Source: Candidatus Cloacimonadales bacterium
GTDB taxonomy: Bacteria > Cloacimonadota > Cloacimonadia > Cloacimonadales > DAONDQ01
Length of the DNA: 64,000 nt
Reading direction: 5' to 3'
Assembly (NCBI GenBank): GCA_963662275.1
Contig: OY759316.1
Span: forward strand, 1,152,001 to 1,216,000
Shown: positions 11,616 to 22,859 of the stretch, one piece after another
Layout: every line of letters starts with the position of its first letter
How positions within the stretch are numbered: the stretch's first letter is position 1
The notes under the pieces: model-generated
What the model was told of the DNA's origin: nothing
The model's input: only the letters and a program-made list of their open reading frames with translations
Databases searched by the model: none
Program-made: the position numbers and the translations under genes

Positions 11616-13476
11616 GAGACTGTTCATGAAGTTATTCATAATATTCAATAAGTTAGAAAGTAGCAAGTTGAAAAAAGTGGTCGAAACGGTCATAATTTAA
11701 CATACCTTCCAGAATTGACAGATAAGCTCTGCTAAGGACACCAAATCACAAGTTAAGCTTTTTGACTAAAATTGAAAAACACGCGATTATAAGTAATGTT
11801 TCGAAGCCGTTTCTGACTAAATGTGTAGTTAAAATCATATAAAATAGTTCTTTACAAGTTTTTTGCTATAGCTTCAATGGCATTTGTTACCTGGTAACAA
11901 AAGGGAGGATATTATGACAAAAAAACACTCCAATTCAAGAAGCGGTAAGTGTTAGTCATGAAAGTAACCAATACCATGTAAGTATTAACGTACCATTTTC
12001 ATTCACTTTGCCTGAGACAACATCAAACCACAAGTTCTTAATAGCGTTTCTACGCTTATTAGTAGGAATAGGCGGAGACAACCTCCTTACACTTCAGCAA
12101 ATAGCTGATCTGTTTAACTACGCAGACCGCAGGAATGTACATAATTTCTGGCAAGAGTTTGAGCAGCATGGTCATGATATCCTGGCATATTTAAGCCGGA
12201 AAGTTGACCTGCTGGAGTGTATTCCTCAGATCGAGAATTTTGTTATCAATAACCTGCTTTTACCTTTAAATGTCATGTATCAGGAGTTCATCAGCCATCA
12301 TGATTTTAAAATGTCCTATACCACTTTCTGCAAATATGCTTCTCAGGTCAATTCTCTGTCTGTAGTTAAGCAAGCTCAGAAGCTTCTTCTGAAAAAGACA
12401 GTAGGCGGTGATGCTGTACATCTGCTGAAACTGCTTGCCGGTCAGCAGAATACACCTGTTATCTGTGACAGACTCCTGGAACAAATGAAGACTGCTAAAG
12501 GCAATACATCCCATAGAACCGCCGATGCAAAGCCGTTCCATAGTCTGGAACGCAAGAACCTGTGTCTGCTGGTACATTACCTGGTTGGAAGCGGTATGAA
12601 CTTCGAGACGATAGCTTTGCTGCTCAACACCTGTAAAGCTACAGTCTCAAATCTCTGGCATGAAATCGCTGACCTGCAGAGCCTGATTCTGAACTCAATC
12701 GGTAAGTGGAGCGGAAAGATCAGCATTGATGAGAAATATGTGAAGATCAAAGGTATTCCGTACTATGTCATCAGTATTGTTGATTTTGTGACTCACATCC
12801 CTCTGTTTTGTGAGTTGTATCCTGACACAAAGAAAGAATCATTCGAAGCATGTTTCAGAACCTTCAGACAGCTCTACAGGAAAGATCCAACCCTGATTGT
12901 CAGTGATGGCAGTAAATCGTTAGCAGTTGCAAGAAAAACAGTGTTTCCAAAAGTCCATTACCAACTCTGTAAGTTCCATAAGATACGAAATCTCTTCAAA
13001 AGAATCAGTCAATGTCATCTCCCTGAAGACAGGGACAAGTTCTTTAAGAAGAGGATTATGAAAGCTTTCCGAAGAGAAACGGCGGGCGGAAGGAAAAAGG
13101 GTATCGCAAGCCTGACAGCTATTACTCCCCCAACCGCCGCCGAATACATCAAAAGCAATATCATTAGTGATTGGAGACACCTCAGCAAAGGTTTGACTTC
13201 CAATGTCTCTGAACGCTGGAACCGCAAAATCAAGAAGGTGACATCCGGTAGATTTGGACTAAAATCTGAAGAAACCACCCGCAACCTTGTGTTTTCGCTT
13301 TGGTTCAAAGAACTGGTCGATAAAGGTCAACCAATCATGCGTCAGGAATCACTTTTAGCAAGTTTAAATATCTCCCGCATATGTCAAGAAAATGTGGATT
13401 GGTCGCACTTAGACCACTTTTTCTCTGTCACTACCAATAAGGCTGCGTAAAATGGAGGTTAATTTTGAACAGTCTC
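11616..13476 (+). mobile_element. Insertion sequence, 1861 bp, DDE type (IS6/ISH6-like, family uncertain)
   Basis: 11-bp terminal inverted repeats GAGACTGTTCA (11616-11626) and TGAACAGTCTC (13466-13476); 8-bp direct repeat CATTAACA at 11608-11615 and 13477-13484. Confidence 0.9.
12008..13450 (+). CDS. DDE transposase; the true start is probably 11914 across a frameshift
   Basis: ISIDEKYVKIKG, IVSDG, YQLCKFH, TSNVSERWN. Confidence 0.85.
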   Translation: MPETTSNHKFLIAFLRLLVGIGGDNLLTLQQIADLFNYADRRNVHNFWQEFEQHGHDILAYLSRKVDLLECIPQIENFVINNLLLPLNVMYQEFISHHDFKMSYTTFCKYASQVNSLSVVKQAQKLLLKKTVGGDAVHLLKLLAGQQNTPVICDRLLEQMKTAKGNTSHRTADAKPFHSLERKNLCLLVHYLVGSGMNFETIALLLNTCKATVSNLWHEIADLQSLILNSIGKWSGKISIDEKYVKIKGIPYYVISIVDFVTHIPLFCELYPDTKKESFEACFRTFRQLYRKDPTLIVSDGSKSLAVARKTVFPKVHYQLCKFHKIRNLFKRISQCHLPEDRDKFFKKRIMKAFRRETAGGRKKGIASLTAITPPTAAEYIKSNIISDWRHLSKGLTSNVSERWNRKIKKVTSGRFGLKSEETTRNLVFSLWFKELVDKGQPIMRQESLLASLNISRICQENVDWSHLDHFFSVTTNKAA

Positions 13477-15202: not shown

Positions 15203-15229
15203 AAGCCCCGATAACGATCGGGGCTTTTT
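15203..15229 (+). terminator. Intrinsic terminator
   Basis: aagccccgat-aacg-atcggggctt followed by Ts. Confidence 0.7.
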
Positions 15230-15324
15230 CCATTGAAGAGTTAATTTCTGAACAAATTCTAAAAATACACATCCGAAGAATGAATACAGCTTGATTTCAT
15301 GAAAATGGATATTCTCAATCTGGA

Positions 15325-15389
15325 CTAGCACCTAGCACCTAGCACCTAACACCTAACACCTAGCACCTAGCACCTAGAACCTAAGACCT
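15325..15389. repeat. Heptamer tandem repeat (cctagca/cctaaca)
   Basis: About nine units; inverted counterpart at 15100-15130. Confidence 0.85.
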
Positions 15390-15428
15390 TCTGCTTGACA
15401 AAAACCTCATCATCACTGAAAAGGAATT

Positions 15429-15568
15429 CACGCCGAGTGGCAGGTTCTAAACTACATAGCATGAACTGTCACCGATAGGGTATAACGGGAAACGGTTATA
15501 CCTCCCTTTGGAAAGGCGGGACAGAAATAACAGGACTGTCTTGCCTCCACGCATAAACATGGAGGTAA
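15429..15568 (+). ncRNA. Moco/Tuco-type riboswitch (P3-less) with translational expression platform
   Basis: P1 cgcc/ggcg; P2 gtggcag/ctgtcac with a ctaa..atg receptor-like segment; P4 ggtataac/gttatacc capped by GAAA; cctccctttggaaagg 3' motif as in the E. coli moaA leader; anti-SD ttgcctcca/tggaggtaa; TTGACA at 15395. Confidence 0.8.
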
Positions 15569-15569
15569 C

Positions 15570-16403
15570 ATGAAAAAGCTACTATTACTAACTCTCACAA
15601 TTGCAATGCTCTTTGTGCTTTTCGGATGCAGCGAAAAGGATAAGAGTCCCACGAAGGTTTATGGCTATAAACTGGATCAGTTCATTTCAAAAACAGCAGT
15701 ATTTGATTCTACTACTCATTCAACTTCTATGGCTGATTCAGTCGAAATTCGTAATCTTTACGCTTATGAAATTGTCAGTGCTGATTCTGATCACTGGAGT
15801 CCTCGTACTGCTACTTCTACAGCAGGATATGATTTATCTTGGAACCAGTTTAAGAATGGATTCTATATGCCCTCAGATGCTAATCTGATATCGTGGTTTC
15901 CGAATACTACTCTCCCTGGAGCTTTTAAAGTTAAACGTGTCGGTTTCTTCAGATTATATCGAAAAATAGATGTAACTGCTTCTGACGGTTCAACAAAGAT
16001 GGTCGAATTGAAGAGTTTACCTTTGTTTCCCATCGATAATTGGAATCATGTACAGGAAAATGCGATTAAATTAAGTGATTTAGTACAGGGAATTGCAGCT
16101 TATGATTCACTGAAAATGGTGGGAGTAGATGGTTTTTCACGTACATATAGTTCTGCACAAATTGCGGATGGTTACTACTTGTTAGATTCAGAAGTAACTA
16201 CTTTCCCATTACTTAATGGAACTACACTCACTCCTGGAATATGGAAAGTAAAGAATCTGGCTTATATAGATGTTATAGGTGTCTCTTCACCTCAATCCTT
16301 TACATTCATCAATGCTCTTGAAGAAACAGCAGATATGATCTTTCTGATGCCTTCGAGCATGAATAGTTATACAACAACAGATGTTACCGGACTATCGAAG
16401 TAG
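15570..16403 (+). CDS. Lipoprotein with a degenerate molybdopterin-binding-like C-terminal domain
   Basis: Lipobox LFGC; IKLSDLV...VGVDGF...WKVKNLAYI. Confidence 0.7.
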   Translation: MKKLLLLTLTIAMLFVLFGCSEKDKSPTKVYGYKLDQFISKTAVFDSTTHSTSMADSVEIRNLYAYEIVSADSDHWSPRTATSTAGYDLSWNQFKNGFYMPSDANLISWFPNTTLPGAFKVKRVGFFRLYRKIDVTASDGSTKMVELKSLPLFPIDNWNHVQENAIKLSDLVQGIAAYDSLKMVGVDGFSRTYSSAQIADGYYLLDSEVTTFPLLNGTTLTPGIWKVKNLAYIDVIGVSSPQSFTFINALEETADMIFLMPSSMNSYTTTDVTGLSK

Positions 16404-16413
16404 TAAATCACTC

Positions 16414-16968
16414 ATGTGGGATAAATTCTTTCGCAGGTTCAGTACACATGATCTGCTTTTAATATCGTTATTCAGCGCTTTGGGATTGGCGATTAAACCA
16501 ATCGTCACTCCCTTGGTGCACTTGATCTCCATGCCGCTAATGATTCCAGGCGGTTCTCTTGCTGGCGGGTTTTATATGATGTGGCTGGCTATGGCAGTTG
16601 CTTTAATACCGAAATTTGGAACAGGGTTTCTTGTTGGAATCGTTCAAGCCCTTTCAATTCTGGTCTTAGGTATTACCGGAAGTCATGGGATAGTATCGAT
16701 CATCAGTTATTCTCTCCCAGGTTTATTGATAGACATTTGTGCTCTTATGATTAAACATAGAGCCTGTTTATGGGCACAAATTCTATTCGTGATCATCGCT
16801 AATGTAACAGGTACGATCATGGTGACGCTACTAATCATGCGATTATCAATCATACCGGCTATGATTGCTCTAACCAGTGCTGCTATATCCGGGTGTCTTG
16901 GTGGTTTGCTTTCTTTTTGGTTGATTAAAAAAATGATTGCATATCATTTAGTTACTATTGAGGATTGA
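16414..16968 (+). CDS. ECF transporter S component
   Basis: About 185 aa, six TMs, DLLLISLFSALG start and PKFGTG; ECF A and T genes nearby. Confidence 0.8.
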   Translation: MWDKFFRRFSTHDLLLISLFSALGLAIKPIVTPLVHLISMPLMIPGGSLAGGFYMMWLAMAVALIPKFGTGFLVGIVQALSILVLGITGSHGIVSIISYSLPGLLIDICALMIKHRACLWAQILFVIIANVTGTIMVTLLIMRLSIIPAMIALTSAAISGCLGGLLSFWLIKKMIAYHLVTIED

Positions 16969-16971
16969 ACT

Positions 16972-17940
16972 ATGCGTAATGTTGTTTTAAGTTTGATAAT
17001 AATACTTGCAATGTGTCTGCCATCCATTCTAATTGGCTGGGTAGTAACCAATTCAGATGGAGGTACGAAAGTGTTTACAAATGACAGCTTTTCTAAGCTG
17101 CCTATGATTGAAGTAAAGACAGAACGGGATAAGAAGGGACAGCATCTTTCTGATCAATGGAAAGGATTTCTTCTTCAGGATTGGCTGGAGAAGAATGGTT
17201 ATACTGATTTCGGTGAGATTATTTTGGAATCTTCAGATCATTACCAGGTTCGATTATCTAAAGATGATTTGGTCAAACAGGAAGCATTGATAGCGATATT
17301 CCAAAATAATCAGCCACTTGAGCAAAAGGATATACGCCTCATACTTCCCGCTATGCGAGATATGTACTGGATTACGAACATTTCAAAGATTACACTTCAG
17401 GATAAAGATCAAGCCAACATTCCCAGTTGCATATATTGGGCAGAACCGATTATTCATGCCAAACAGCTAAGAACTGATATCGTACCATTCAAGGATATGA
17501 AGGGTTATGCTTTTACGGATTTACTTGAACCCAATATTCCCTTCCCTGATGGCGATGTCTTAGTGATGGGCAAAGATGGAGTCAGGCATCTATTGGATTA
17601 TCGCAAATTCTTAAAAAAGGCAGTACTGGAAAAGACAGAAAGCGAAGGTTATTGGCTCAAAAGTCCGGATATGCCAGCAGGAATGTGGATTAAGAACATC
17701 GCTTATGTTCAATTCAGTAAAACAGGTATACTTTTCAAAGAGGCTTTTCAGAAGAAATCATTACAGGATTTAGCTGATATGCTTCTCTGGAAGAATGTGA
17801 CTGCCTTCATACCTATTGAAAAAGATACACCGGCTAATGAGATCAAGTCATGGGAAAACAAGGAATTAAAATTACAAATGATAAACTTGTCGAACGCTCT
17901 AATTACTCATTATCCATCGATTCAACTGAAGGTCAAATGA
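16972..17940 (+). CDS. Exported protein with two oxidoreductase-molybdopterin-binding-like repeats
   Basis: WKGFLLQDWL..SSDHY..RLILP..YWITNISKI and KGYAFTDLL..GKDG..MWIKNIAYV. Confidence 0.7.
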   Translation: MRNVVLSLIIILAMCLPSILIGWVVTNSDGGTKVFTNDSFSKLPMIEVKTERDKKGQHLSDQWKGFLLQDWLEKNGYTDFGEIILESSDHYQVRLSKDDLVKQEALIAIFQNNQPLEQKDIRLILPAMRDMYWITNISKITLQDKDQANIPSCIYWAEPIIHAKQLRTDIVPFKDMKGYAFTDLLEPNIPFPDGDVLVMGKDGVRHLLDYRKFLKKAVLEKTESEGYWLKSPDMPAGMWIKNIAYVQFSKTGILFKEAFQKKSLQDLADMLLWKNVTAFIPIEKDTPANEIKSWENKELKLQMINLSNALITHYPSIQLKVK

Positions 17941-18398
17941 AGAAATTAGTTGTGATTATTCTTATTACTTTCGCATTGCTCTTGTTGTGGTCGAAACCAT
18001 TGCCTTTGTATATAGATGGTTCTCAGAATCCTATGATCATTCATAATACGAATCTTGGTGACTTTGTTCAGACTCAAATACCTTTCGTGAAAGCTGCTCT
18101 TATCGTAGGTTCTGATTCAATAGCTGTTGGAGTAACTGCAGATGAATTCGGAATGATAAGTTTAAAGTATGAAAATAATGAGTGGTTTGTAGAAAACGAT
18201 TCCCTGCCTTCACCAGCCAATATCAGGGACATTTCTAAAATCTATTTGTATAATCCATTTGCTTCAGTTACATCATCCAGTGATTCAAATCGTTTTCAAT
18301 TCACGGACATAAGGAATAATGCAGATTTTCTCGGACAGGCAGAAAAGAATGGTTATATTATCTGGAAATATCGTATTCATCAAGGAGTTAATAAATGA
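17937..18398 (+). CDS. Exported hypothetical protein, weakly similar to the same domain
   Basis: ATGA overlap with the upstream gene; signal peptide; LIVGSD...NIRDISKIYL. Confidence 0.6.
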   Translation: MKKLVVIILITFALLLLWSKPLPLYIDGSQNPMIIHNTNLGDFVQTQIPFVKAALIVGSDSIAVGVTADEFGMISLKYENNEWFVENDSLPSPANIRDISKIYLYNPFASVTSSSDSNRFQFTDIRNNADFLGQAEKNGYIIWKYRIHQGVNK

Positions 18399-18835
18399 AA
18401 CCAATTCCCATATTACTTATCGGCCTTGTATTAATCCTGACAGCATTAGAGCTATGTTCCAAACAAATCATACCAAGTACAGGAATTATTCAAATCGTCA
18501 CCGAAAAGAAAACATACAATATAGCTGATCATATCTTTCAAAGACAAATGACCCAAAAAGTCAAAGCTAAACGAGGTTCGGTATGGCATGGAGTGTATCT
18601 TGCCAAATTCTTTACGGAGAATGGATTCGATGTTAAAAAATATCAGCAATGCACTTTGGTGGCAAAAGATGGAATGCGGATCACGATTCCGATGGATGAA
18701 ATTACCGATAACCAGGCATTTATTACTTTTGTGAAAGATAAGAAAAGCGGTAAGTATGATTTGAAACTTATCATGCTGCAGGACTCTTTTGAGCAGCGTT
18801 GGCTGAAATATATTGTTCAAATCATACTGGAATAA
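18395..18835 (+). CDS. Exported molybdopterin-binding-like domain protein
   Basis: WHGVYLAKFF..LVAKDG..LKLIM..RWLKYIVQI. Confidence 0.7.
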   Translation: MKPIPILLIGLVLILTALELCSKQIIPSTGIIQIVTEKKTYNIADHIFQRQMTQKVKAKRGSVWHGVYLAKFFTENGFDVKKYQQCTLVAKDGMRITIPMDEITDNQAFITFVKDKKSGKYDLKLIMLQDSFEQRWLKYIVQIILE

Positions 18836-19530
18836 GAGTGTCATCATCTTCTTCACTTGAACTGATTGATTTATCTTTCCAATATCACAAAGAATATGAC
18901 TGGTTATTCAGAAATCTGACATTTCAATTTGAAAAGGGCAGCATTACTGCAATAACCGGTCCCAATGGCAGTGGTAAAACAACGTTACTTTATACAATCT
19001 GCGGAATCATTCCGCTGTTGTTTAAAGGAAATCTGCAAGGTCAGGTGAATTACTCTGATAAGGACATTTCCAAATATTCTTTACCCCAACTTTCGAAATG
19101 GATGAATATACTGCTGCAAGACCCAAATTATCAATTAGTGTTTCCAATTGTTGAACAGGAAATTGCATTTGGAGCTGAGAACTTGTGTTTACCTGTTTCT
19201 CAAATCGAGAAAAGAATTTGTAGAAACCTCAATCTCCTGGGAATCGAGGATTTACGCTTTGCCCACACCGCTGAATTATCCTATGGTCAAAAAAAGATGG
19301 TTTCGCTTGCATCCTTATTAGTAATGGAAAGCCAGATTCTGATCCTGGATGAACCTTCAGCCGGATTGGATGAATATGCATGTGAACTGCTAAAGACTCT
19401 GCTGCTGAATTTATCCGCTGAGGGAAGAATCATTATCTTTGCAGATCATAATTCCGAATTAGTGCAAATTGCTCATCACCGGATTACTATGCCGTATTTT
19501 TTGAACAAGGTCGATACTGATGATCTATAA
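18799..19530 (+). CDS. ECF transporter ATPase (EcfA/CbiO-like); start uncertain
   Basis: GPNGSGKT, QDP..VEQEIAFGAEN, LSYGQ, LDEP. Confidence 0.9.
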   Translation: MAEIYCSNHTGIRVSSSSSLELIDLSFQYHKEYDWLFRNLTFQFEKGSITAITGPNGSGKTTLLYTICGIIPLLFKGNLQGQVNYSDKDISKYSLPQLSKWMNILLQDPNYQLVFPIVEQEIAFGAENLCLPVSQIEKRICRNLNLLGIEDLRFAHTAELSYGQKKMVSLASLLVMESQILILDEPSAGLDEYACELLKTLLLNLSAEGRIIIFADHNSELVQIAHHRITMPYFLNKVDTDDL

Positions 19531-20179
19531 TCTGCAAAATATCAGTTATGGCTATGTTCCTGGAAAGCTTATCCTGGATGAAATAAGCATGATTATCATG
19601 GAGAACGAGATCACTCTACTCACAGGAATCAATGGTTCGGGGAAAACAACTTTCTGCAGATTATTAACAGGTCTCATATCTGCTTATCAAGGAATAATCT
19701 CCTTGGAAAATAGTGATTTAAAGAACTATCAACCATATCAGATTGCTGAAAAAGTACTATATCTCAAACAGGAAGGTATTCAAAACATCGTTGCAGCTAC
19801 ACCTGGTGAAGACCTAATGATTCGACAAAGAAAATTCGTTCAGAAGGATAATACAACTTTTGAAAAAGCCAGGGAAGAGGCTCTTAAAAGTGTTGATCTT
19901 GTTCATCAAAAGAATATTCCAACCTGGGAAATGAGCGCAGGGCAGGTAAAACGGATTGGTCTTGCTACCTTATCGCTATTCACTTCATATTATTGGATAC
20001 TGGATGAGCCATATCTTGGTCTGGATACTAATTTGATAATGAAACTAAAGAAACAGCTTTCTGAGAGAAAAGAACAAGGATATGGAGCGATGATCGTTAA
20101 TCATTTGGATATTTCAGATGATTTTCAATACGATGCACACTATCATTTGAAAAATGGAAAGTTGATTAAAGTATGTTGA
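19520..20179 (+). CDS. Second ECF transporter ATPase
   Basis: GINGSGKT, MSAGQ, LDEP. Confidence 0.85.
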   Translation: MIYNLQNISYGYVPGKLILDEISMIIMENEITLLTGINGSGKTTFCRLLTGLISAYQGIISLENSDLKNYQPYQIAEKVLYLKQEGIQNIVAATPGEDLMIRQRKFVQKDNTTFEKAREEALKSVDLVHQKNIPTWEMSAGQVKRIGLATLSLFTSYYWILDEPYLGLDTNLIMKLKKQLSERKEQGYGAMIVNHLDISDDFQYDAHYHLKNGKLIKVC

Positions 20180-22098
20180 ATAACAACCTGTTTTTTCCGT
20201 TAATCTGTATTTTAACGATTTCATCACTTTATGCTGATACTATTGCAGGTAGAGATACGATAGCGAAGGATAGTTTACAAATCAGGCATTACACATTGGA
20301 TGCGCTGCGTGTTATTGGTGAGAAACCAAGTGAAACGATTGGGTCAGTCAATATTACTAATATTGATTATGCAAATCAACCCGGTCTGCAAAATGTGAAA
20401 GATGCTTTAACAAACTTACCCGGTATCAGTATGACTGTTGGTTCAAAGGATGAAAGTAATTTACGTATCCGGGGTTTTCGAAAGAACGAAGTGAAAATAT
20501 TGTTGGATGGAAGACCTCTCAATGCAGGATATTTCGGGAATGTTAATCTCCAAAACCTGCCAGTTTCAGGTATCAGTGAAATCCAGGTATTGAAAGGACC
20601 AGTTTCTTCGATGTATGGCAGTAATACTTTGGGTGGTGTTGTTAATTTAATTACCAGGGATCCTTCAACAAGAAAATGGTTCAAATTGGGCATGAGCGTT
20701 AAAAGGAATAATACAAATCATTTCGAGTTATCTACTTCTCATCGATTCGAAAATTGGAACTATTGGTTGTTTGCTTCTCTTGAGCACAGCGATGGCTTTC
20801 TTCTTCCAAAAGACTTTCAAGCAACTAATTCAGAGAATGGTGGTGTTCGTGATAATGCCAGCAAAACCCAAGAGCTTGTGGAAGTTAAAAGCACATGCAA
20901 TATCACTGATTTTCACATGATCACTTTTACCGCAGGGGTTGCCAGTATTCCTACAAAGTATTTGCCATCATCCATTTATGAAACTAAATATCGACTTTAT
21001 AAAGACTATCAACGCCTGGAAGGCACAATTCGCAGCAATCTTCAGCTTTCACCTGGTTGGAAGCTGGATTCCATGCTCTATTTGGATGGTGGAAAGGACA
21101 CATATCAAGAGTTTAATGACCCCAATTTCCATCATATGGCAATGGATTCTGATATGAAGAATTTCACTATTGGATTTACACACCGCGCTAATTTGCAGAT
21201 GCAGGATGGAAGCGAGTTGAGCATTGGATATCGGGGTGAAAGGCAATTCAGCAATCGGAAGGATAATGGAAACTACCCAACCTGGACAGATCATTCCACA
21301 ATGCTGCATAATCTCTTTTCCCAGGTGGAATGGAAAGTATCCCAGCCATTGACTGTTACTGGCAGTGCTGGGGCTTCCTATTTCTCAAAAGATGTTGAAA
21401 AAAGTAATGCCCTGTTATTCGAACCTTCCCTGGGGGTTTACTATGAGTTTCCAAATCACGCTTCATTATCTTTGGCTGCAGGTAGAAATACGGCTTTTGG
21501 AACGATGAGACAGTTATTTAGTGTAGAGAATGGCAACATCAATTTACGTCCCCAGGTTAGCATGAAATATGAAATTACTGGTAAAAAGCCATTCCTGCTG
21601 AATACTGCAAATGGACTTCTAAGCTTGAGTCTTTATTTGAATGATGTGAAAGACTTAATCGATATTCATGGAAATACCTATCAAAATATCTATAAAGTGC
21701 GTTCTTACGGTGGTGAATCGGATTTGGAAATAGCACCCTATTCCTGGTGGAATATGACTTATTCATATTGCTATCTCGATTATGCCGATTTAAGCAGCTA
21801 TCGTTTGACTGAAAGCCCCAGAAATACGGTTGGATTGAACTGGACTTTTCTTTTACCCGTAAGAACGAAAGTCACTGTTTCTTCAAATTGGGAAGATATG
21901 CGTTTCAGTGAAGATTCAAATTTCCAATATCATCATTTGGACTCATACTGGGTACATAATCTCGCGTTGAAAAAGGAATGGCGTGATTTTTCAATAACCT
22001 TTGGCTTAGAGAACTTCACAGATACTAATTACCAGGAAGAATACGGCTTCCCTGCACAGGGAATCAACTTCTGCTTTGGTTTAGAGAAGGAATTCTGA
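20173..22098 (+). CDS. TonB-dependent receptor
   Basis: Plug motifs IRGF..ILLDGRP, VLKGPVSSMYGSNTLGGVVNLIT; ENFTD..Y and terminal F. Confidence 0.92.
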   Translation: MLNNNLFFPLICILTISSLYADTIAGRDTIAKDSLQIRHYTLDALRVIGEKPSETIGSVNITNIDYANQPGLQNVKDALTNLPGISMTVGSKDESNLRIRGFRKNEVKILLDGRPLNAGYFGNVNLQNLPVSGISEIQVLKGPVSSMYGSNTLGGVVNLITRDPSTRKWFKLGMSVKRNNTNHFELSTSHRFENWNYWLFASLEHSDGFLLPKDFQATNSENGGVRDNASKTQELVEVKSTCNITDFHMITFTAGVASIPTKYLPSSIYETKYRLYKDYQRLEGTIRSNLQLSPGWKLDSMLYLDGGKDTYQEFNDPNFHHMAMDSDMKNFTIGFTHRANLQMQDGSELSIGYRGERQFSNRKDNGNYPTWTDHSTMLHNLFSQVEWKVSQPLTVTGSAGASYFSKDVEKSNALLFEPSLGVYYEFPNHASLSLAAGRNTAFGTMRQLFSVENGNINLRPQVSMKYEITGKKPFLLNTANGLLSLSLYLNDVKDLIDIHGNTYQNIYKVRSYGGESDLEIAPYSWWNMTYSYCYLDYADLSSYRLTESPRNTVGLNWTFLLPVRTKVTVSSNWEDMRFSEDSNFQYHHLDSYWVHNLALKKEWRDFSITFGLENFTDTNYQEEYGFPAQGINFCFGLEKEF

Positions 22099-22859
22099 TG
22101 CAGGAAGAAAAGGACAACCGGCTAAACCCGGAGCTACGACTAAATACCAGGACGAAAATACTGATGGTTGTCACCCTCTCTTTTCTTGCCCTACTATACA
22201 GCCAGGTTTGGATACTTGCCATATTGACCTGTATTTCCTTACTCCTTTACATCATTGGAAAAAGGCGATCTTCTTCTAATCATTCTAAAAGCAATTTCAA
22301 ATCTCTATTGATATTAATATTCAGTCTTATGTTCATTCAAATCCTATTCCGACCTGCAGGCACGTTATTATGGCATTGGGGAGTTGTTCGCATTTCAATG
22401 GAAGGAATCAACTATGGCGTTGCTGCTTCTTTCAGAATACTGATCATCTTCCTTTCTGCTGGATACTTGCTGAGTATTTCCTATTATGAATATCTAATGG
22501 CGTTCCGATCCTGGAGACTCCCGTATGAACTATCTTTCCTCATGGCTTCCGTGCTGCAATTCCTGCCTATTCTAAGAAGGGAATTTCAATTAGTGGGAGA
22601 AGCACTCACTTTACGCGGTATAGAATTGGGGAGATTACCTTTATTGAAGAGATTAAATGCCTACCAGGAGCTTGTTTTCCCAATACTGGCTAGAGCAGTT
22701 TCTTCACTAAAGTTTCGTGTAATCTCTCTCGAAATGAGAGGTTTCCGACTTTCTAATAAACGTACTGCATTGCATGAAGATCATTTGAAGATTATTGATT
22801 ACATGGTGCAGGGCGGTCTTGTATTTATCATCACAGTCTGTTTTTACCTGAAGATTTGA
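22098..22859 (+). CDS. ECF transporter transmembrane T component (EcfT/CbiQ-like)
   Basis: LNTRTK start, QFLPIL, LRG and LEMRGF motifs. Confidence 0.88.
   Translation: MQEEKDNRLNPELRLNTRTKILMVVTLSFLALLYSQVWILAILTCISLLLYIIGKRRSSSNHSKSNFKSLLILIFSLMFIQILFRPAGTLLWHWGVVRISMEGINYGVAASFRILIIFLSAGYLLSISYYEYLMAFRSWRLPYELSFLMASVLQFLPILRREFQLVGEALTLRGIELGRLPLLKRLNAYQELVFPILARAVSSLKFRVISLEMRGFRLSNKRTALHEDHLKIIDYMVQGGLVFIITVCFYLKI

Follow-up and report, generated by a model that had tools for sequence, protein, structure and literature searches.

We analysed a stretch of 64,000 nucleotides (nt) from the genome of a Candidatus Cloacimonadales bacterium (assembly GCA_963662275.1, contig OY759316.1, forward-strand positions 1,152,001 to 1,216,000), referred to below as the window and numbered from its first letter. 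The leader of a nine-gene operon, which starts at 15570 and appears to encode an import system, contains a riboswitch of the molybdenum cofactor (Moco)/tungsten cofactor (Tuco) family that lacks the P3 helix. We consider it highly probable that this RNA acts as a translational OFF switch. The best explanation for leader and operon taken together, which is still likely, is that the switch gates an importer of a pterin cofactor. That the cargo is the cofactor itself, either the tungsten cofactor or some molybdopterin form, salvaged from the surroundings, is in our estimate about an even call.

The aptamer was located with cmscan as a match to RF01055 (Moco/Tuco riboswitch) at 15419-15534 on the plus strand, with a score of 67.7 bits (gathering score, 36 bits), an E value of 3.6e-14 and coverage of the full length of the model (1-135). 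It is the sole match in the window and also in the 4.38-Mb single-contig genome of the organism. In the Rfam alignment, the aptamer has P1, P2, P4 and P5, a GAAA tetraloop on P4 and the conserved CCGAG, CCUCCC and GGAAAGG core, with one G.G mismatch in P4. The 5' strand of P1 (15429-15434) pairs with 15515-15520 over six positions, one of which is an A.G mismatch. P2 is a hairpin at 15437-15473 with a CUAA receptor-like bulge, followed by the P4 hairpin at 15478-15503, which is also found in the minimum free energy (MFE) structure and has its tetraloop at 15489-15492. P5 is a mini-stem at 15504-15511, formed by CC (15504-15505) and GG (15510-15511) in the setting of the CCUCCC...GGAAAGG core. 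The P3 columns are deleted in the alignment and the spacing from P2 to P4 is just 4 nt, in agreement with a first-pass annotation of this DNA, made by a model from the letters alone, which had seen no P3 between these helices. The fold of 15419-15590 has a z-score of -4.21, and none of 200 shuffles was equally stable.

Downstream of the aptamer, two alternative helices share one segment. The P1 3' strand together with the next four bases (15515-15524) can pair with 15536-15545 in an anti-sequestor of 10 bp, including 2 G-U pairs, while 15541-15549 can pair with 15560-15568 in a sequestor of 9 bp, including 1 G-U pair. The latter takes in the Shine-Dalgarno (SD) motif GGAGG at 15561-15565, ahead of the ATG at 15570. 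The first-pass annotation had drawn P1 and both of these helices, and a base-by-base check confirmed each of them at exactly these positions. In the linker, 8 nt are common to the two alternative helices, whereas 100 dinucleotide-shuffled linkers averaged 1.72 and none of them reached 8.

The energetics of the leader were computed with ViennaRNA on 15419-15590. The unconstrained RNA (MFE, -50.4 kcal/mol; ensemble, -52.8 kcal/mol) contains the anti-sequestor and has an SD unpaired probability of 0.63. Enforcing P1 through its five canonical pairs, a check that the annotation had itself suggested, rebuilds P2, P4 and P5, and the sequestor then arises unprompted, with the SD region (15560-15568) as the 3' arm of a hairpin of -11.7 kcal/mol. 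In this state the best structure is at -43.7 kcal/mol, the ensemble at -47.1 kcal/mol and the SD unpaired probability at 0.00. The two ensembles are thus 5.7 kcal/mol apart, a gap that in energy terms could be paid by ligand binding and tertiary contacts. In the full leader the anti-sequestor is longer than 10 bp, with 15509-15512 also pairing with 15546-15549 across a 2-nt bulge. Its 5' arm is therefore 15509-15524 (core UGGA, the bulge, the P1 3' strand and 4 nt more) and its 3' arm 15536-15549, of which the 3' part, 15541-15549, is the anti-SD. The isolated hairpin is at -18.0 kcal/mol with this extension, versus -14.0 kcal/mol without it. Since the anti-sequestor extends into the core, it competes with P5 as well as with P1, and it covers the whole anti-SD. 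The 10-bp helix first annotated was thus correct as far as it went, and it also covaries (see below), but in the energy model it must reach further 5' in order to free the SD.

At low cofactor levels, P1 and the aptamer core would be open, and 15509-15524 (GGA, then the P1 3' strand) would pair with 15536-15549 and tie up the anti-SD, such that the ribosome could reach the GGAGG at 15561-15565 and the ATG at 15570. With cofactor bound, P1 and P5 would form and 15536-15549 would be set free, and the 3' part of this segment, CCUCCA, could then pair with the SD and stop translation of the first gene. The translationally coupled operon would probably stop with it. In the first-pass annotation, too, a ligand-stabilised P1 was expected to free the anti-SD and shut off translation. 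Both the folding and the covariation support this scheme, in which ligand binding and the OFF logic are what we infer for this leader. To our knowledge, direct binding of purified ligand has never been shown for a Moco riboswitch, even for that of E. coli.

The same design recurs in relatives. We surveyed 61 genomes of the order, which are kin and not independent samples, and found RF01055 in 44 of them, with 78 matches in total, all of which were taken as leaders. No more than 1.5 kb separates 47 of the 78 from downstream homologues of the operon proteins (for three of these, ABC ATPases only). For 76 leaders it was possible to assign both an anchor and a start codon, and the 63 with a linker of 30-120 nt were analysed; the remaining ones are mostly of a direct type, where the P1 3' strand itself is a GGAG a few bases before the ATG. 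Among the 63, the P1 3' strand pairs downstream at five or more of 6 nt in 47, the SD core is sequestered once the P1 strand is blocked in 55, and at least 4 nt are common to both helices in 46. All three features are found together in 39 leaders, and the mean overlap of the helices is 4.67 nt, versus 2.12 nt in shuffles. In most relatives the anti-SD/SD helix lies 4-10 nt before the start codon.

Covariation across homologous leaders, the second check that had been suggested, was assessed on a MAFFT alignment of 20 leaders, a selected subset picked by eye for similar length. In this alignment, 85.4% of the anti-sequestor cells are paired, versus 50-60% with the 3' partner slid, and 7 of the 13 pairs show compensatory changes, giving a covariation score reached by none of 500 shuffles. 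A covariance model built from the 20 leaders was run on all 78 loci and then, at E <= 0.001, on 57; the search at E <= 1 gave spurious low-score rows, and the 21 loci left out have no match at E <= 0.001. At this threshold the model aligned 37 leaders, 17 of them outside the seed. Here 86.3% of the anti-sequestor cells are paired (47-71% when slid) and 9 of the 13 pairs are compensatory, with 38 compensatory cells against 15.2 expected and again no shuffle out of 500 reaching the score. For the sequestor, the register is paired at 73.9-79.2%, versus 41-60% when slid, and the 5-bp core is paired in 29-33 of the 37 relatives, or in 33-37 counting standard pairs including wobble.

A number of observations weigh against this interpretation of the RNA. 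At least one of the three features is missing from 24 of the 63 leaders. The 37-leader alignment is fitted to the model, so that its counts lean to structure. Two-sided changes in the sequestor are no better than in shuffles (448/500, 346/500 and 321/500); we attribute this weak covariation to the CCUCC/GGAGG core being fixed by the SD, and the compensatory changes that do occur fall within the inner A/U extension, where the first two inner pairs account for 10 and 6 cells. Among the 37 relatives, 18-23 lack pairing at the outer 3 bp of the sequestor (15541-15543 with 15566-15568). The 9-bp register, which the first-pass annotation had described and which is present in this sequence, was therefore dropped as a feature of the family; judging from the alignments, what is conserved is CCUCC/GGAGG plus an A/U-rich inner extension. 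The energy model ignores ligand and tertiary contacts, and even in the unliganded leader the SD is unpaired at only 0.63. Finally, one relative (leader L015, 1501-1646) has a genuine P3 ahead of an orthologous lipoprotein-S-component operon, while its neighbours are P3-less, and thus P3 does not strictly track the regulated system. Among seven Moco alignments compared for the longer hits of the order, L015 is the one with P3, five have their extra length in the P2 or P5 loops, and the seventh, from a leader of the same genus (L031), is P3-less and of ordinary length.

One could argue that the downstream helices are incidental, with the SD hairpin acting as a damper constitutively and the aptamer either regulating through P1 alone or having no regulatory role. 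This would fit the behaviour of a truncated construct starting at 15515 (without the GGAAA core), which keeps the sequestor in both states with the SD unpaired at 0.10. The value for the full leader is 0.63, which indicates that the 5' extension matters in the energy model. It would also fit the per-leader shuffle tests, which are individually weak, only 15 of the 63 leaders beating 95 of 100 shuffles for overlap. However, 7-9 of the 13 anti-sequestor pairs are compensatory, with a score that none of 500 shuffles attained, slid controls show the register to be specific, and the helices overlap in 46 of the 63 leaders, all of which leaves the incidental reading very improbable. An attempt to mimic the ON state with leaders beginning at the P1 3' strand was discarded, as the SD was mostly paired in many of them; the anti-sequestor reaches into GGAAA.

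The switch might also work mainly on transcription or mRNA lifetime, through Rho-dependent termination or decay, with SD occlusion as the trigger or a secondary effect. Control of nine genes from one SD would be easier with polarity, and terminator-type platforms are described on other Tuco riboswitches of Eubacterium limosum (PNAS 2024, PMC11725836). Both kinds of platform, with the ribosome-binding site (RBS) inside P1 or with a terminator, also appear in the account of Moco RNAs in Regulski 2008 (PMC2408646). In our leader, however, there is no intrinsic terminator and no U-run after either the sequestor or the anti-sequestor hairpin, and the element conserved in most relatives is the anti-SD/SD helix placed before the start codon, and hence we regard this alternative as unlikely. 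The only terminator-like site found is a hairpin at 15203-15226, upstream of the aptamer, at the 3' end of the preceding gene, a UDP-glucose dehydrogenase-family open reading frame (ORF). Scanning the region before the aptamer for promoters gave no sigma-70-like site; the single match falls inside the upstream gene, and a TTGACA at 15396 was rejected as a promoter element for want of a -10 partner. The interval from the upstream terminator to the riboswitch also holds about nine imperfect 7-nt units (cacctag/cacctaa) at 15322-15388. A 480-aa ORF with MULE/Mutator-family transposase domains, at 12008-13450, lies two genes upstream of the riboswitch.

Downstream of the switch, all on the plus strand, lies an operon with the components of an envelope-spanning import system. 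The first gene (15570-16403) encodes a 277-aa lipoprotein with a domain (residues ~84-238) that AlphaFold and VIA-align predict to have the pterin-binding fold of PruR and the sulfite oxidases. It is followed by a membrane protein resembling the S component of an energy-coupling factor (ECF) transporter (16381-16968; PF09819, E 5.1e-10), the true start of which is probably the second Met at 16414, where the relatives begin. Next is a 322-aa exported protein with an Oxidored_molyb/PruR-like domain (16972-17940; PF00174, 31.2 bits; Foldseek), in which the Pfam match spans only profile positions 60-166 of 169. A 182-aa ORF at 17850-18398 has no family match, and its likely start is the ATG at 17937, overlapping the stop of the previous gene. 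The gene at 18395-18835 encodes a 146-aa protein homologous, by hhalign, to the PruR-like domain of the 322-aa protein (probability 92%, E 5.7e-7). Two ABC ATPases (ECF A and A'; PF00005, 92.5 and 74.7 bits) occupy 18799-20179. The last two genes encode a TonB-dependent receptor of the outer membrane (20173-22098; Plug, 81.2 bits, plus a beta-barrel), for which every named receptor family scores below its cut-off, and an ECF T component of the CbiQ family (22098-22859; PF02361, 69.4 bits). A complete ECF set, with S, T and two ABC ATPases, is thus present in one operon. Family searches found no ModA, TupA, WtpA or Mop-type protein and no SBP_bac_11 or PBP_like_2 domain in the operon, and NCBIfam has no name for its small proteins or its S component.

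Three exported proteins of the operon are predicted to share the pterin-binding fold of PruR and sulfite oxidase, and their N-termini carry signal or lipobox sequences. AlphaFold models made on alignments of relatives (29 sequences for the lipoprotein and 21 for the 322-aa protein) had a pLDDT of 90.3 and 84.6, respectively. In a Foldseek search of solved structures with the 322-aa protein, PruR was best (E 3e-8, TM-score 0.74 on the target), one of the entries being a neopterin complex, and the next neighbours were the Moco domains of sulfite dehydrogenase/oxidase and YedY. The profile of this family also matches SorA and PruR in the PDB by sequence, at E 0.004-0.014 (PruR, 0.006-0.014). With VIA-align, the lipoprotein reached a Z of 11.2 to PruR (7kom; root-mean-square deviation 2.5 Å over 106 residues) and 9-10.8 to Moco domains of sulfite oxidase/dehydrogenase. 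With the exception of rank 12 (9a64, an integrative model), every entry among ranks 1-32 belongs to the PruR or sulfite-oxidase family, and Z then drops to ~5. The lipoprotein and 322-aa families match each other in hhalign at 89% (E 2.3e-6). Neither family alignment has an invariant Cys besides that of the lipobox, and the full Moco domain and metal-ligating Cys of the sulfite-oxidase-family molybdoenzymes were not found in the operon proteins. From these alignments, the pterin-fold proteins look like binders rather than enzymes of the sulfite-oxidase type.

PruR itself is a periplasmic pterin-binding protein of ~140 aa, described as the signalling partner of a cyclic di-GMP enzyme (PNAS 2024, PMC11194511). 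Its structures (PDB 7kom, 7kp2, 7rkb with neopterin, and 7kos) are the best structural neighbours of both the 322-aa protein and the lipoprotein. Like PruR, the operon proteins have a small, exported domain of sulfite-oxidase fold without a conserved metal-ligating Cys. They differ in that the domain sits in proteins of 146-322 aa, in a transporter operon behind a cofactor riboswitch, and the sequence identity is 10-18%.

What such an importer would carry can be approached from the rest of the genome, which is 99.97% complete in one contig. Two AFOR_N matches were found, in a protein of 720 aa that has both AFOR_N and AFOR_C in full and in a divergent 634-aa relative, and these two AOR-family genes are the tungsten-cofactor genes of the organism; a genome search for TupA and WtpA found neither. 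There was no match to MoaC, the MoaA C-terminal domain, MoaE or MoeA_N, in searches that were positive in 11 of 14 control genomes. Other candidates were examined and rejected. The sole MoCF_biosynth match (PF00994), which might have been MogA/MoaB, is CinA, and the sole PF00384 match is to a truncated domain within a GltD/NuoG-like fusion protein of 1149 aa. As for TupA or ModA, the PF12849 (PBP_like_2) match is PstS of a pstSCAB operon, and the PF13531 (SBP_bac_11) match is a thiamine/iron-type binding protein. The best score for MobA (TIGR02665) is 28.7 bits against a cut-off of 151.85; the control genomes gave matches in 14/14 but over the cut-off in only one, so that this search has little discriminating power. 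As far as genes can be recognised, this genome shows none of the known routes for making the pterin, inserting the metal or taking up the oxyanion. Since AOR-family enzymes are present without recognisable MoaA, MoaC, MoaE, MoeA or ModA/TupA/WtpA, the cargo of the importer would be the pterin cofactor.

The same pattern is seen across the order. Among the 61 genomes, MoaC is found in 5 and MoeA_N in 4, as against 40 with AOR, 41 with the S component and 42 with the 322-aa protein; 14 have none of the surveyed features. Of the 35 genomes with AOR but without MoaC, the S component is present in 33 and the riboswitch in 34, and the two without an S component are 82% and 91% complete. Two of the MoaC-positive relatives place the riboswitch elsewhere: in one (L005) it precedes an SBP_bac_11 protein and an ABC ATPase, and in the other (L016) a PBP_like_2 protein and a permease, with MoeA and MoaC 3-5 kb downstream on the same contig. 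Given the pterin-fold proteins, the vitamin-type ECF transporter, the TonB receptor and the lack across the order of MoaC and MoeA alongside AOR, salvage of the pterin cofactor is the most economical explanation. The first-pass annotation had expected an uptake operon behind such a switch, and the TonB receptor, ECF transporter and pterin-fold proteins fit that expectation, though with a cargo that is probably not tungstate.

The main rival for the cargo is a tungsten species, either tungstate or a tungsten chelate, carried by the importer under the same RNA mechanism, with some other role for the pterin-fold proteins. ECF transporters for metal ions exist (Ni/Co, as in the Pfam names of PF09819 and PF02361), and in the order 36 of the 41 genomes with the S component have AOR, such that the system tracks AOR and not absent biosynthesis, a pattern that would also fit tungsten. 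P3-less RNAs are moreover linked to tungstate transporters in Regulski 2008 (PMC2408646). On the other hand, 33 genomes with AOR and the system have no MoaC, and our organism in addition has no MoaA C-terminal domain, MoaE or MoeA; without cofactor biosynthesis, tungstate alone could not mature AOR there. The three proteins with the pterin-binding fold and the lack of Mop-, ModA-, TupA- or WtpA-like proteins in the operon also speak against tungsten, as does the use in biosynthesis-bearing relatives of the riboswitch before classical oxyanion ABC binding proteins instead. We therefore consider a tungsten cargo possible, though rather unlikely.

Export has been considered as well: the ECF module could send or traffic cofactor to Sec-exported enzymes of the Oxidored_molyb type, with no import involved. 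The pterin-fold proteins are indeed exported, and a related operon in Alkaliphilus peptidifermentans also includes an FMN_bind protein of a kind usual in extracytoplasmic redox modules. However, the organism is unable to make the cofactor, switching off at high cofactor fits import, no Cys able to ligate the metal is invariant in either family, and a TonB receptor implies inward transport. This alternative is accordingly given very little weight.

Relatives of the S component were found at a minimum of 522 loci (one genome per species scanned). The 80 loci retained out of these at least 522 are mostly from Candidatus Cloacimonadota, with others from Bacillota and Thermoleophilia at 40-48% identity. 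Of about 25 loci outside the Cloacimonadota, 17 were scanned, and at 5 of them, all in Bacillota, a same-strand copy of RF01055 lies 1-2 kb upstream, P3 being present in one of the five. The only Bacillota operon inspected is that of A. peptidifermentans, which has the riboswitch, FMN_bind, Oxidored_molyb, the S component, a Phosphodiest/Metalloenzyme protein, a second Oxidored_molyb and two ATPases. Two proteins in this operon (L164:2320-6108) are additional to those described above, namely the FMN_bind protein and a 503-aa protein of the nucleotide pyrophosphatase/phosphodiesterase family; speculatively, the latter might cut back dinucleotide forms of the cofactor ahead of its uptake.

Several points count against salvage of the pterin cofactor. 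All five Bacillota genomes with the riboswitch and S component have AOR and four of them have MoaC, so that across phyla the module is tied to AOR plus cofactor and not to auxotrophy. With the system also carried by 3 of the 5 MoaC-positive relatives in the order, a strict rule of salvage only in auxotrophs was abandoned. The S component occurs in 5 of the 21 AOR-negative genomes. For the lipoprotein, Foldseek alone gave a best E of 0.018 and nothing at E <= 0.001. The pterin cofactor is labile, and we know of no environmental pool of it. On the side of the RNA, the equation of P3-less RNAs with the tungsten cofactor is a correlation (Regulski 2008, PMC2408646): as reported there, 58 of 176 Moco RNAs have no P3, and Tuco genes are present in 17 of the 19 organisms whose RNAs are P3-less. 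The link to tungsten-cofactor genes had been cited as established in the first-pass annotation, and it stands in that correlative sense.

With respect to known riboswitches, the leader can be compared with that of E. coli moaA (PMC2408646), with which it shares the Rfam family, the P1-P2-P4-P5 core, the GAAA tetraloop and the proposed OFF logic. As described there, however, the E. coli RNA has P3, carries its RBS within P1 and regulates biosynthesis genes, whereas ours is P3-less, has a separate downstream sequestor and anti-sequestor and precedes transport genes. The closest precedent is in E. limosum (PMC11725836), where P3-less riboswitches before tupABC and wor1 are reported with RBS sequestors and with complementary segments overlapping a conserved aptamer helix as well as the sequestor. 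The absence of P3, the sequestor/antisequestor layout, translational control and the presence of AOR-type tungstoenzymes are all common to the two. This type of platform has thus already been published, and our leader is a further example of a known design. What differs is the setting: in the account of E. limosum, which synthesises the cofactor itself, the genes concerned are those for TupABC, WOR1, FocA and two ABC systems with an iron-transporter annotation, while here the riboswitch heads an operon for a TonB receptor, an ECF transporter and pterin-fold proteins in a genome without cofactor biosynthesis. The cargo of the two "iron" systems behind Tuco riboswitches in E. limosum may deserve a second look.

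Some other leaders of the order precede genes of other kinds. About 18 of the 78, by N-terminal similarity, are P3-less and of the sequestor type and precede genes for NAD(P)-type aldehyde dehydrogenases (PF00171, 308 bits; for example, L030:1597-3123 and L067:3-1421), no such copy being found in our genome. By analogy with the B12 riboswitch before metE, this looks like a cofactor-independent isozyme that is turned off when the cofactor for AOR is abundant. In four cases (L021, L036, L050 and L040), the riboswitch stands directly before an AOR gene, with a short linker and a P1 3' GGAG followed by a second GGAGG. OFF control of the cofactor's own client enzyme being odd, these riboswitches may work differently. 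One genome has two riboswitches ~230 nt apart on opposite strands (L048 and L061), each heading its own operon, with the system divided into divergent lipoprotein-receptor and S component-322-aa protein operons.

The arrangement proposed here has its counterparts among the vitamins. Cofactor-sensing riboswitches are paired with importers for B12 (BtuB or ECF-CbrT), thiamine pyrophosphate (ThiT), flavin mononucleotide (RibU) and tetrahydrofolate (FolT). As in our operon, an OFF riboswitch that senses the cofactor stands in these pairs before a TonB receptor and/or an ECF S component, which there serve that cofactor. The import path here would run from the TonB receptor through PruR-like periplasmic pterin carriers to the ECF importer (S, T, A and A'). 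The regulon survey of Sun et al. 2013 (PMC3766115), by contrast, contains no such pair for the molybdenum/tungsten cofactor, its classes of coenzyme uptake being B12, thiamin, riboflavin, queuosine and folate only. The general view, as stated in PMC9026282, is that each cell using the cofactor synthesises it and that it is not taken up. No bacterial importer of Moco or Tuco was found in the literature that we searched, and the papers on cofactor uptake that the search returned concern nematodes only. The system may therefore be the first recognisable case of uptake of a molybdenum/tungsten pterin cofactor in bacteria, with most members of the order being auxotrophs that run AOR on the cofactor of their neighbours and the modules in Bacillota supplementing synthesis, a proposal with about as much for it as against it.

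Taken alone, the RNA adds one more well-behaved example to a known class, and its value lies in offering a clean, covariation-supported platform of three helices on which selectivity for molybdenum versus tungsten can be tested. The context matters more than the RNA, as the switch controls an importer operon instead of modABC, tupABC or wtpABC. Since it stands before an import system in a bacterium with tungsten enzymes and no cofactor-making genes, the riboswitch probably rations the uptake of ready-made cofactor. Across the order, tungstoenzymes without MoaC or MoeA occur together with the riboswitch, the TonB/ECF components and the pterin-fold proteins, and this pattern points to cross-feeding of the cofactor in anaerobic communities, with concrete candidate genes for its uptake. 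Were the proposal to prove true, the last major coenzyme sensed by a riboswitch would gain its missing importer, the maturation of AOR in these uncultured syntrophs would be explained, and there would be a route for delivering the cofactor into cells.

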